38,625 bases of DNA from a virus, in the UHGV virus genome UHGV-1545242. One strand, written 5' to 3'. Under the pieces are notes generated by a model. It had not been told where the DNA came from and did no database searches. It saw only the letters and a list, made by a program, of their open reading frames with translations. The position numbers were made by a program, and so were the translations under genes. Of the stretch, positions 6,733-9,880 are shown one piece after another (position 1 is the stretch's first letter; every line of letters starts with the position of its first letter).

Positions 6733-6963
6733 ATGAGCGATAACGGACATTTCGATTTCAAAAAGCACTGGCTTGCACTTACTCCGGATGAGCGTGAAGC
6801 CTTCGCACAGGAAGCCGGAACGACGAGTCACTATATCCAGACTCACTTAACAGGTAAGCGCAAAATGCCAGGTAAAGTATTGATGAATGGGCTTTTTAAA
6901 GCCTGTAAAACAAGACAATGGCTGCGCTCAAAAGCAGAACTGGCATACTTCTTCTACTCATGA
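6733..6963 (+). CDS. Cro-like small DNA-binding regulator
   Basis: 76-aa ORF divergent from repressor across operator-containing intergenic region. Confidence 0.6.
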   Translation: MSDNGHFDFKKHWLALTPDEREAFAQEAGTTSHYIQTHLTGKRKMPGKVLMNGLFKACKTRQWLRSKAELAYFFYS

Positions 6964-7329: not shown

Positions 7330-8163
7330 ATGAGCAGACATGCAACAGATTGGGCCTGGGAGACAGATCCAGGTAGCTCATCATTAAAGCTCATACTGCT
7401 CTCGATGGCTGACAGAGCCGATGAATATAACCTCTGCTACCCCAGCATAGAACGCCTCGTTAAAGACACTTGCCTGAATAAAAAAACCGTGCAGGCCGGG
7501 CTTATATCGCTCATGAAAATGGGGCTTATTTCAGATACCGGAGAGAGAAAGGGAGCGACAAAAAGAGTGCGGGTTTTCTCTCTTAATATAACCAAAAACG
7601 GGAACATTAAAGGCAACCGGGAGGGGGGCAATGAACCCGAAAACGGTAATGTTACCGAAAACGGGAATATACCCAAAAACGGGATGTTGAATGATCCCAA
7701 AAACGGGATGTTGAATGATCCCAAAAACGGGATCCAGAACCAGTCATATAACCAGTCATTTAACCAAGAGAGGGAGAGCAGGACAAAAACCGGGGATTCT
7801 GTGCCTCATGACCCCGGCGCAAACAACGCCGTGATGAATAACTTTGTTCCTCCTGGTGGGCCAGGGCAATTAGGTAAATTTGTCATGCATGAACAATGGC
7901 AGCCATCAGATGACTTTCTTCGGAAAAGCTCATTGCAGGGAATCTACCTGGACAGTCTGCCAACGGCACAGGAACTTGCAGAGTTCAGAATTTACTGGAT
8001 GGCTGAGGGTAAGGCATACCATCAGGCACAGTGGGAGCAGAAGCTGGCAAGGCGCATCCAGTTCTGTAGACAGAAATCAGGTGAAGTCAGAAAGAGCCTT
8101 GACTGGCATAACACTGACTGGATAGATGAGGTGTGGGATGAAATCAACTCCAGAACTTCTTAA
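7330..8163 (+). CDS. Replication initiator (lambda O-like / replisome organiser) with internal origin iterons
   Basis: N-terminal HTH region (WETDPGSSSLKLILLSMADRADEYNLCYPSIERL), followed by iteron-encoded repeats and a C-terminal domain preceding the P-like gene. Confidence 0.75.
   Translation: MSRHATDWAWETDPGSSSLKLILLSMADRADEYNLCYPSIERLVKDTCLNKKTVQAGLISLMKMGLISDTGERKGATKRVRVFSLNITKNGNIKGNREGGNEPENGNVTENGNIPKNGMLNDPKNGMLNDPKNGIQNQSYNQSFNQERESRTKTGDSVPHDPGANNAVMNNFVPPGGPGQLGKFVMHEQWQPSDDFLRKSSLQGIYLDSLPTAQELAEFRIYWMAEGKAYHQAQWEQKLARRIQFCRQKSGEVRKSLDWHNTDWIDEVWDEINSRTS
7592..7732. repeat. Iteron array, candidate replication origin inside the initiator gene
   Basis: Six copies of CC(C/G)AAAACGGGA at 7592, 7636, 7655, 7672, 7696, 7720 including a perfect 24-bp tandem CCCAAAAACGGGATGTTGAATGAT; followed by AT-richer direct repeat cagtcatataacc/cagtcatttaacc. 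Confidence 0.65.
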
Positions 8164-8920
8164 TGAGTACGATCGCTTTCGTGGTGGGCATGACCACTCG
8201 ACGGCGGTTGCTTCTGCTGACGATGAAAGGGCAAAGAAGGAGCAGGTTGCAAGAATTTTCAACGAAATGTTTGTCCAGTTACAGGCTGCATTTCCAGGCA
8301 GCATCGCTGCTATCAGCGAGCAAGGAAAGCTAAACGAATTTCGAAAACAATGGATGCTTGCGTTTCTGGAGAATGGGATCACAACAATGGAACAGGTTAA
8401 CGCTGGTATGCGCCACGCCCGCGCCAGTGAATCTCCGTTCTGGCCGTCGCCAGGGCAATTTATCAAGTGGTGTAAAGACAGCAAGATGGTTCTTGGCGTC
8501 ACCATTGACGATGTGATGGCGGAGTTTCACCGGTACAGCAAGGAAAAAAGTTTATATCCTGGTGGTCCCGAAAGATTCCCGTGGCGACATCCGGTTATGT
8601 ACTGGGTCGTATGTGATACCCGCCGTGCAATGTATCAGCGCCAGCTTAGCGAGATTGAGGTTGAGAAACACGCGCGCAGGCTGCTCGATGATTGGGCGAA
8701 AAAGGTGGCTTCCGGACAGCAGATACCCGATCCGGTGATCAGCATACAGGCAAAGCCAGAACCCATGAGTACACCTCCGGACACAGGGAGAGACGTTTAC
8801 CATCCACCAGGGCGAAGTTTCGGGTGCATGCCTAACGCCGCCACCCTTGGGGGAATAACACCGGCGCAGTGGCTGATGGAGGAATACAGGCGGGGAAAGG
8901 CGGCAGGATTTATCAAGTAA
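8138..8920 (+). CDS. Replication protein P-like (DnaB helicase loader)
   Basis: Block EFRKQWMLAFLENGITTMEQVNAGMRHAR...PFWPSPGQFIKWC closely parallels lambda P central region as I recall it. Confidence 0.85.
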   Translation: MKSTPELLNEYDRFRGGHDHSTAVASADDERAKKEQVARIFNEMFVQLQAAFPGSIAAISEQGKLNEFRKQWMLAFLENGITTMEQVNAGMRHARASESPFWPSPGQFIKWCKDSKMVLGVTIDDVMAEFHRYSKEKSLYPGGPERFPWRHPVMYWVVCDTRRAMYQRQLSEIEVEKHARRLLDDWAKKVASGQQIPDPVISIQAKPEPMSTPPDTGRDVYHPPGRSFGCMPNAATLGGITPAQWLMEEYRRGKAAGFIK

Positions 8921-8957
8921 TACCAGCGCGATAGCGCATTTTTTTACGTCTCGATGA

Positions 8958-8972
8958 TTACCTGCTGGGTAA
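8958..8972. promoter_or_regulatory. Operator-like palindrome TTACC-N5-GGTAA downstream of P-like gene
   Basis: ttacctgctgggtaa. Confidence 0.55.
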
Positions 8973-9019
8973 TAAAATATTCTAAAATCTATTGATTTAG
9001 TGTCTTATGTGGTTTTTAA

Positions 9020-9034
9020 TTACCTCAGGGGTAA
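9020..9034. promoter_or_regulatory. Operator-like palindrome TTACC-N5-GGTAA overlapping RBS of frameshifted gene
   Basis: ttacctcaggggtaa, 62 bp from previous site, AT-rich promoter-like DNA between. Confidence 0.55.
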
Positions 9035-9037
9035 ATC

Positions 9038-9381
9038 ATGAGAAAACAGATACAGGCTCTTGGTCGACTCAAAACAGGCCAGATGAACAAAACAGAATCT
9101 GCGTATTGCCAGCACCTTGAGCAGCGTAAACGTGCAGGGGAAACGCCTGGTATCGGTTCGAGGGTATCAAGCTGCGGTTAGCTGATAACACGTTTTATAC
9201 GCCAGATTTCGCTGTGATGCTCGCCACCGGCGAGATGGAACTGCACGAAGTGAAAGGTTTCTGGACCGACGACGCCAGGGTGAAAACCAAAGTCGCCGCA
9301 GATCAGTATCCGTTCCGAATCATCGGGGTAACGGTTAAGCCAAAGAAAGCAGGTGGTGGCTGGAACATCGAAGAGTTCTGA
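9038..9381 (+). pseudogene. Frameshifted gene (recalled as DUF1064 family); reading frame broken near 9150-9180
   Basis: ATG at 9038 reads 47 codons to TAG at 9179; a second frame is open from ~9146 to TGA 9379 (WYRFEGIKLRLADNTFYTPDF...); total 344 nt, not a multiple of 3. Confidence 0.5.
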
Positions 9382-9442
9382 ATCGACGATCTTTTTAGTT
9401 ATCAATGTAATCAATAAGTTATGTGGATAAGCGAGGGTAAAG

Positions 9443-9880
9443 ATGGAAAGTAATATCAAAGGGTTAGTTTCCGCCGGGCATGAGATGGCTTCGGAACTGA
9501 AAGCAGAATGTGGTGCCGTTGATATGCGCAGTGTGGCAAAGCTGATCAGCGATTTGGCAACGCAACTGGAAGTGCAACTGGTGCGTGCTAATGCGCTGGC
9601 GGCGGAGAATGCGCTGGCTCGTAAAGCAGTTCAGGCATTTTGCGATGTTGTTGGCGACAGCACCGAGGTTATCTGCGAGGAGATTGGGCGAGATGGCGTT
9701 CTGGTTATTTTGGAGGCAATGAAGGCAACAGGAAATATGCCAGCCACCGATGCTTTCCTGTCTGAAGTGCGGGCGCAGGGGGTAGAGATGATGCGCGAAC
9801 ATCCAGCAATCAAACTTTGTTGTTTGACGCACATATGTGATGAGTTAGCCGCCCAGCTTCGCAAAGGAGGCAACCAGTGA
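9443..9880 (+). CDS. Hypothetical nin-region protein
   Basis: 145-aa ORF, stop overlaps next start. Confidence 0.55.
   Translation: MESNIKGLVSAGHEMASELKAECGAVDMRSVAKLISDLATQLEVQLVRANALAAENALARKAVQAFCDVVGDSTEVICEEIGRDGVLVILEAMKATGNMPATDAFLSEVRAQGVEMMREHPAIKLCCLTHICDELAAQLRKGGNQ

Follow-up and report, generated by a model that had tools for sequence, protein, structure and literature searches.

In this work, we focused on an array of short repeats in the virus genome UHGV-1545242 and on the replication gene that contains it. The stretch analysed, hereafter the window, comprises 38,625 nucleotides and represents a temperate E. coli podophage of the phiV10/TL-2011b type (Uetakevirus, 38.6 kb), integrated or assembled, with its integrase-side end at the left; its early genes are 97-99% identical to those of phiV10, phiv142-3, PAS61 and others. 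On the plus strand, at 7330-8163, lies the gene of a replication initiator of 277 amino acids, which is made up of an HTH_36 (helix-turn-helix) N-terminal domain (N-domain), a linker encoded by the repeats and a DnaT-like C-terminal domain (C-domain). It is followed on the same strand by a lambda P-like helicase loader gene (8138-8920). The repeat-bearing segment 7589-7768, located in the central part of the initiator gene, which codes for the linker, is very probably the origin or the initiator-binding array of this phiV10-like temperate phage, as judged from the comparisons reported below.

The motif CC(A/G)AAAACGG(G/T)A occurs six times at 7592-7732, within the open reading frame (ORF) 7330-8163. 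When the window was searched for CCVAAAACGGKA with at most one mismatch, exactly six matches were found in the 38,625 bases, all of them on the plus strand (at 7592, 7637, 7655, 7673, 7697 and 7721) and all within 141 bp; the shuffled window gave a mean of 0.85 matches, and none of 100 shuffles reached six. Extended to 16 bp, the plus-strand units are the following: iteron 1 (TAACCAAAAACGGGAA, 7589-7604), a distal copy lying 45 bp upstream of iteron 2 (AACCCGAAAACGGTAA, 7634-7649); iteron 3 (TTACCGAAAACGGGAA, 7652-7667), 18 bp from iteron 2 and within an 18-bp tandem unit; iteron 4 (TACCCAAAAACGGGAT, 7670-7685), 18 bp from iteron 3; and iterons 5 and 6, both ATCCCAAAAACGGGAT (7694-7709 and 7718-7733), each 24 bp from the preceding one. 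In iterons 5 and 6, the dyad is perfect (ATCCC-AAAAAC-GGGAT), with 5-bp arms around AAAAAC; in iteron 6, the inverted repeat is GATCCC at 7717-7722 and GGGATC at 7729-7734. Iterons 1-4 are partial dyads that keep two to four of the five arm pairs. In the output of Tandem Repeats Finder, the three top-scoring tandem repeats of the window have periods of 24 bp (score 124; 7672-7733, 2.6 copies with 100% matches), 18 bp (score 65; 7635-7684) and 12 bp (score 51; 7738-7766). No other repeat scored above 48, and no second iteron-like array was found in the whole window. The six copies share one reading frame and encode the peptides TKNGN, PENGN, TENGN, PKNGM, PKNGM and PKNGI, with PKNGMLND occurring twice.

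A sequence-only reading of this DNA had described six repeat copies, a perfect 24-bp tandem repeat and the repeated peptide PKNGMLND within the initiator ORF, all of which were recovered here. It had also placed the copies at roughly helical-repeat spacing, which holds only when the last four distances are averaged (21 bp, i.e. two turns): start-to-start distances are 45, 18, 18, 24 and 24 bp, and individual steps of 18 and 24 bp amount to 1.7 and 2.3 helical turns. The span that it proposed, 7592-7796, takes in the six copies, but its end includes a degenerate seventh iteron-like copy (ACAAAAACCGGGGA, 7783-7796, plus strand, two mismatches). The residue encoded by this copy varies (T/S/N/I/A) among near-identical relatives, unlike the iteron cores, and the copy is therefore doubtful as a site; the array extends instead to a second class of repeats at 7738-7768.

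Further symmetry is present in and beside the array. On the minus strand, at 7680-7723, the tandem dyads give rise to two terminator-like hairpins (GGGAT...ATCCC, then TTTTT), which are most likely a by-product of iteron symmetry. Directly upstream of iteron 1, at 7541-7585, there is an inverted repeat composed of the purine run GAGAGAGAAAG and its complement TTTTCTCTCTT; it is part of the coding sequence for the highly conserved motif DTGERKG...RVRV and adjoins the gene's least stable 40-mer.

The initiator protein matched Pfam HTH_36 over residues 18-67 (E 2.3e-10, 40.6 bits against a cutoff of 25) and Pfam DnaT (PF17948) over residues 184-250 (E 1.1e-14). Among the PHROGs, it fell into phrog_1032 'replication initiation protein' (E 1.9e-102, residues 1-266), its membership of the HTH_36 type being confirmed, and weaker matches were to families named 'replication initiation O-like'. 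The N-terminal DNA-binding domain, which is the presumed reader of the iterons, is encoded at 7330-7590 (plus strand, residues 1-87). It is 28-56% identical to its homologues of six other phages in the alignment, and residues 1-96 are invariant in all 12 aligned E. coli relatives; in the AlphaFold2 (AF2) model, which is of low confidence, it adopts a helix-helix-helix-beta-hairpin arrangement. The DnaT-like C-domain is encoded at 7867-8094 (plus strand, residues 180-255), and phmmer aligned it with the E. coli DnaT structures 6AEP, 4OU6, 9ZBT and 2RU8 (E 3e-19 to 3e-17). Database entries name the initiator 'primosomal protein', 'HTH domain-containing' or 'DnaT-like'; the first of these names describes only its C-domain.

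No Pfam Phage_rep_O (PF04492) match was obtained with the initiator, while lambda O and P22 gp18, when scanned similarly, gave E-values of 6e-36 and 7e-38, respectively. Membership of the lambda O family (PF04492) was rejected, the protein having no Phage_rep_O N-domain and a C-domain that is DnaT-like and not of the P-binding lambda O type.

The P-like ORF opens at 8126, with a likely start at ATG 8138 behind GAGG, which gives a 26-nt overlap with the end of the initiator gene; an equivalent P-gene start is annotated in TL-2011b. Its product matched PF06992 (E 4.2e-53; 179.9 bits, cutoff 26) and phrog_109 'P-like helicase loader' (E 9e-88) and is 41% identical to lambda P over 174 residues (E 1e-47), in full agreement with the relationship to lambda P that had been read from the sequence. 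In near-identical phages, the C-terminal tail of the initiator (8050-8163; loci L011-L090) exists in two forms, ...RRIQFCRQKSGEVRKSLDWHNTDWIDEVWDEINSRTS in the window and TL-2011b versus ...RRLQISRQKQSTLPDNNVPHWNSPEAWEDFL in phiV10. The mosaic joint of these tail variants is the overlap of the initiator and P genes, and lambda O and the O protein of phage GF-2 likewise terminate in the NTDWI motif. Upstream of the initiator gene, a repressor gene lies on the opposite strand and a small gene at 6733-6963 (plus strand), which matches phrog_35 'transcriptional repressor', occupies the position of cro; the initiator gene thus belongs to a rightward early operon.

Past iteron 6, the second repeat class (7738-7768, plus strand) consists of AACCAGTCATAT, AACCAGTCATTT and a partial AACCAAG, with a 12-bp unit and the general form AACCAGTCATWT. 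AAYCAGTCA has only two matches in the window, at 7738 and 7750, and phiV10 carries three full copies of the 12-bp repeat. In most family members (e.g. L001 3409-3450, L005, L092, L096, L009, L101, L114 and L118 1915-1923), the last iteron is succeeded by the motif GAAYCNNTCA, with a period of 12 or 13 bp, in reading frames 0, 1 and 2 and also beside unrelated iterons; in Vibrio phage Her, the post-array repeat DNA is translated as NQSL and then as EPVI. Among 25 loci, mostly of HTH_36 family members, the 82-nt zones that follow the arrays contained 28 occurrences of AAYCNNTCA, against 19 in the other 80.9 kb of these loci, an enrichment of about 60-fold that is only indicative since the pattern was picked from the same loci, many of which are related. 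Independent support comes from P22, in which the sole AAYCAGTCA in 6 kb lies inside the annotated rep_origin, directly after the last iteron. Additionally, GGGACAC at the junction past the last iteron is common to several relatives and lambda, and some relatives (Acinetobacter, Pseudoalteromonas) have tracts of 73-83% AT in the post-array position. The segment 7738-7768 may be regarded as a candidate unwinding or helicase-entry element, situated where lambda has its AT-rich tract.

Iterons of plasmids also act in autoregulation and handcuffing, and the repeats might in the same way be sites at which the initiator or another protein binds for regulation, be it to autoregulate the O-P operon, to act as a roadblock to transcription or to control copy number by pairing, with the true origin elsewhere. 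Consistent with this, no strong AT-rich tract lies beside the iterons, and two regions downstream of the P gene have features of their own. The least stable 40-mer of the window (8953-9026, ca. 75% AT) directly follows the P gene, at a place where phiV10 annotates a terminator. The intergenic cluster at 9409-9466, about 0.5 kb past the end of the P gene and some 1.7 kb beyond the iterons, is composed of a perfect DnaA box (9422-9430, minus strand) between two perfect consensus matches for integration host factor (IHF; 9409-9421 and 9454-9466). DnaA-box-like 9-mers (at most one mismatch) number 18 in the whole window against 9.2 expected; in or adjoining the array, neither DnaA boxes nor IHF sites were found, so that no host-factor site can be claimed there. 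However, both downstream regions are without iterons, the array being the only one of its kind in the window; its layout matches the experimentally defined origin of lambda and the annotated origin of P22, including the post-iteron motif; and it keeps the same position in phages whose downstream regions are quite different. We regard an array of regulatory sites with an origin elsewhere as improbable.

In order to compare the array between phages, homologues of the N-domain were retrieved by tblastn against annotated phages (124 records), from which six regions at 28-58% identity were compared. A second source was a one-genome-per-species scan with a four-sequence alignment as query, which yielded 27 loci (Superficieibacter, Phaseolibacter, Providencia, Proteus, Pseudoalteromonas, Acinetobacter, Desulfovibrionaceae, Beijerinckiaceae and others). 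A scan of IMG/VR returned near-identical N-domains only and was suited to copy-number polymorphism, not to deep comparison. In the 420 nt after the N-domain, at least five copies of one 11-mer family were present in 24 of 31 diverse loci, and at least six in 20 of them. Control zones of the same loci had two or three copies in 142 of 159 cases, four in 14 and at least five in only three (maximum six), and those of the window had two to four. A repeat array immediately past the N-domain is put forward here as a feature of HTH_36-type initiators; it does not belong to their curated definition. The arrays follow a common plan, i.e. often a distal copy, then two or three tight copies at 17-18 bp and then two to four copies at 22-24 bp; a gap after the first copy resembling that of the window is also found, at 45-47 bp, in locus L092 and in the Acinetobacter arrays.

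The repeats were further compared with the domains that accompany them. In the Edwardsiella phage GF-2 (L004 2001-2843), the N-domain is 57% identical to that of the window by tblastn (56% in the alignment) and the array is made of ATCCCAAAATTGGGAT three times at 24-bp spacing; the C-terminal 144 residues are 62% identical to the lambda O C-domain (E 2e-67), and a P gene comes next. GF-2 is a natural chimera, with an HTH_36 domain and its array in place of the origin-binding domain and iterons of lambda O, which suggests that two kinds of origin-binding module may be interchangeable before the same P-binding domain. In Acinetobacter phage AB1, N-domain and array are paired with a DnaB-like helicase gene. 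TL-2011b has the DnaT-like C-domain (58% identity, residues 181-277) and the P gene in common with the window; its N-domain is unrelated, and so are its GTAACGC repeats, direct and inverted, which probably represent an alternative origin cassette at this position. Distant N-domains go with different dyads, i.e. GGGGCAGGAGCTGCCCC in Stx2a_F403 (28.7% identity, tblastn) and GTGCCAAAAGTGGCAC in a Zoogloeaceae locus. These comparisons show the repeats to be linked to the initiator N-domain while C-domains and helicase partners change. A correlation between iteron and N-domain similarity is uninformative in this respect, since shared ancestry yields it under every hypothesis; the natural domain swaps of GF-2 and TL-2011b are more informative. 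In TL-2011b (L003 1890-1925 and 2090-2140), we also noted AGCGTTACAAAAGGAGT(A/T)AC twice together with GTAACGC copies, then GATATATATAAAAC.

A second explanation holds that the repeats are merely a slippage-prone, low-complexity peptide linker between domains, without function as DNA. It would account for the single reading frame of all copies in the window, for a copy number that is free (5-11) among near-identical phages and for residues 86-137, which in the low-confidence AF2 model have no secondary structure and the lowest predicted local distance difference test (pLDDT) values. The relatives, however, speak for another kind of constraint. Periods of 17 and 22 bp inside continuous ORFs were found in Bcep176, about ten Acinetobacter prophages, one Desulfovibrionaceae prophage and one Beijerinckiaceae prophage, and in these lineages all three frames are used to translate the unit, and the peptide does not repeat; single 17-bp steps also occur in closer relatives (GF-2, Providencia, Phaseolibacter). 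As the array unit is read in differing frames, selection on a repeated peptide cannot explain it. Among 79 IMG/VR loci with an essentially identical N-domain, there were 43 array haplotypes with five to nine copies, and one protein cluster (P0012) reached 11; spacings in the clade of the window are only 45, 18 and 24 bp, and copy number always changes by 18- or 24-bp steps. The range of 5-11 copies was seen among E. coli prophages with N-domains that are 100% identical (L011-L090 and P0012). Core positions C0, A3-A5, G8, G9 and A11 are invariant across 30 distinct units. Within the clade of the window, the core is invariant or nearly so, including the synonymous third codon positions, and the flanks and first codon positions vary, changes such as T/P and K/E being tolerated. 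The units are moreover dyad-symmetric and similar to lambda iterons, and the array sequence shifts with a change of N-domain but not with a change of C-domain. These patterns show the constraint across the family to be on the DNA and not on the peptide, and a mere peptide linker is very unlikely.

Finally, intragenic repeat arrays are pac sites in some phages (e.g. P22 gene 3), but apart from this general precedent nothing specific favours a role in some unrelated process on DNA (recognition for packaging or a recombination site, for instance), which is hardly credible for an array that is tied to the initiator N-domain across many genera with unrelated virion modules and that was never seen apart from it in the loci examined.

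Several observations weigh against the assignment of 7589-7768 as origin or initiator-binding array. An AT-rich tract like that of lambda is not evident after the array: the first 30 nt are 63% AT and the next 30 nt 43%, the window mean being 51% and the lambda equivalent 77%. In addition, DNA stability within the gene is lowest in a 40-mer at iteron 1 (7573-7612, 68% AT) and not past iteron 6. All copies of the window being in one frame, the argument from frame shifts rests on the relatives only, and the AF2 model, with a mean pLDDT of 38 from 12 near-identical sequences, is too poor for use. No origin is marked here in the annotated regions of phiV10, phiv142-3 and TL-2011b; a survey of the literature on phiV10/epsilon15 origins and on the iteron string returned nothing relevant, and no accessible paper describes the site. 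Cumulative GC skew, which the sequence-only reading had put forward as a check, has its minimum at about 6-7 kb, at the same place as the divergent-transcription switch between leftward and rightward early genes; the origin cannot be located by skew for this reason, and the result is neutral either way. A comparison by hhalign of the N-domain profile with lambda O gave a probability of 2% and an E-value of 0.02, i.e. no detectable homology, the aligned segment being in register with the helix-turn-helix at an insignificant score. Together with the missing Phage_rep_O match, this makes the initiator lambda O-like in its architecture and not a member of the family, and the earlier label 'O-like' stands for the former and falls for the latter. 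The proposal of lambda-like origin iterons inside the initiator gene is itself supported, namely by the likeness of repeats and architecture, the constraint at the DNA level and the linkage to the N-domain.

With 7589-7768 as the origin, the N-terminal HTH_36 domain (winged-helix-type) would bind the six partly palindromic 16-bp iterons, probably as dimers, and the iteron-bound initiators would build a nucleoprotein complex resembling the O-some, ATCCC-AAAAAC-GGGAT being the best form of the iteron. The DNA beside the last iteron would open, likely at the AACCAGTCATWT repeats (7738-7768; flank 7738-7790), and the DnaT-like C-domain and the P-like loader would bring in host DnaB, leading to bidirectional (theta) replication. 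Initiator and P are expressed from the rightward early transcript, which would also cross the origin. Initiator binding, the site of unwinding, dependence on DnaB and the theta mode are steps that we infer.

More tentatively, lambdoid origins might consist of two separable DNA modules, i.e. an iteron array that co-varies with the N-domain and a short post-iteron element, independent of initiator specificity, that would be the true unwinding or helicase-entry signal, replacing plain AT-richness; we hold this to be possible but rather unlikely. In this reading, the element would be made up of the GAAYCNNTCA repeats of 12-13 bp, often behind GGGACAC, represented here by 7738-7768. It would be common to HTH_36-type origins with unrelated iterons and to the P22 origin, and would be present in altered form in lambda.

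Downstream of the P gene, the DUF1064 gene at 9038-9381 carries a 1-nt deletion near 9143 (GGGGAAA-CGCC versus GGGGAAGTCGCC of the intact phiV10 p45, 345 nt), by which it is split into two ORFs (9038-9181 and 9214-9381); it is either a frameshift or a sequencing error.

Lambda is the textbook case of an origin placed within the initiator gene, and the present locus would be a further instance in a different, widespread initiator family. Our analysis offers a concrete origin candidate (7589-7768) for the phiV10/TL-2011b group, temperate podophages associated with E. coli O157, and corrects the misleading naming as 'primosomal protein' or 'DnaT' of a protein predicted to be an origin-binding initiator with a DnaT-like tail. 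Intragenic placement of the origin would reach well past the lambda O family, into a broad HTH_36 family of Enterobacterales, Vibrio, Acinetobacter, Burkholderia and other prophages. Furthermore, the cis element and the two genes marked here could be used for building phiV10-based replicons or reporter phages, with the caution that the initiator linker should not be synonymously recoded when such phages are engineered.

The locus shares features with several known replication systems. Residues 180-255 of the initiator are homologous to residues 85-160 of E. coli DnaT (Pfam DnaT DNA-binding domain PF17948, E ~1e-19); unlike the initiator, DnaT has neither a sequence-specific N-terminal helix-turn-helix nor iterons, and it serves PriA-dependent restart instead of acting at an origin. 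Iteron plasmids (F, pSC101, R6K; Rep_3/RepA) resemble the window in their direct-repeat initiator sites, a reader of winged-helix type and the recruitment of DnaB that is proposed here. Their iterons lie outside the rep gene, unlike the intragenic ones described here, and no Rep_3-type Pfam match was obtained in the window; an assignment to the Rep_3/RepA type was rejected on these two grounds.

The lambdoid origin is defined by two components located centrally in gene O, namely the iterons, all of them inverted repeats that contain an A-tract, and an AT-rich tract; in the Shiga toxin (Stx) phages 933W and P27 there are six iterons and an O protein lengthened by 13 residues (PMC7466680). The window is like these two phages in that iteron number varies between related phages and extra iterons add linker residues, six being found there too (PMC7466680); unlike the window, which has an initiator of another family, 933W and P27 are true lambda O/ori variants with lambda iterons. 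In P22, the annotated rep_origin also lies in the middle of the initiator gene (gene 18), and an (A)TCGGTAAAA array is followed by GAATCAGTCA, the post-array motif of the window. P22 differs from the window in that gp18 belongs to Phage_rep_O, its partner gp12 is a DnaB-like helicase and not a P-type loader, the iteron sequence is another one and a clear AT-rich tract comes after the motif.

In the lambda record, four iterons are annotated directly after the O DNA-binding domain (ATCCCTCAAAACGAGGGA, ATCCCCTAAAACGAGGGA, ATCCCTCAAATTGGGGGA and ATCCCTCAAAACAGGGGGA). The arms ATCCC...GGGAT and the A4C centre of the lambda iterons recur in the window unit, which is about 3 bp shorter; with ATCCCTCAAAACGAGGGA and ATCCCTCAAATTGGGGGA, it shares the outer arms, the A-tract and the location just past the DNA-binding domain. 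Unlike lambda, the window has an N-domain of HTH_36 and not of Phage_rep_O type, a DnaT-like C-domain, six 16-bp iterons at 18/24 bp instead of four of 18-19 bp at 20-24 bp, and an array without a marked AT-rich tract. As in lambda, the putative origin occupies the central part of the initiator gene, directly after the DNA-binding domain, and is made of direct dyad repeats with an A-tract that are translated as an inter-domain linker; a P-family loader gene comes next (41% identity), within a rightward early operon. The 'DNA replication protein O' of GF-2 has, unlike the window, a C-domain that is lambda O-type and not DnaT-like, and its AAATT variant mirrors the third iteron of lambda; with the window, it shares the N-domain family, a near-identical iteron (ATCCCAAAATTGGGAT), the 24-bp spacing and a P gene as the next gene.

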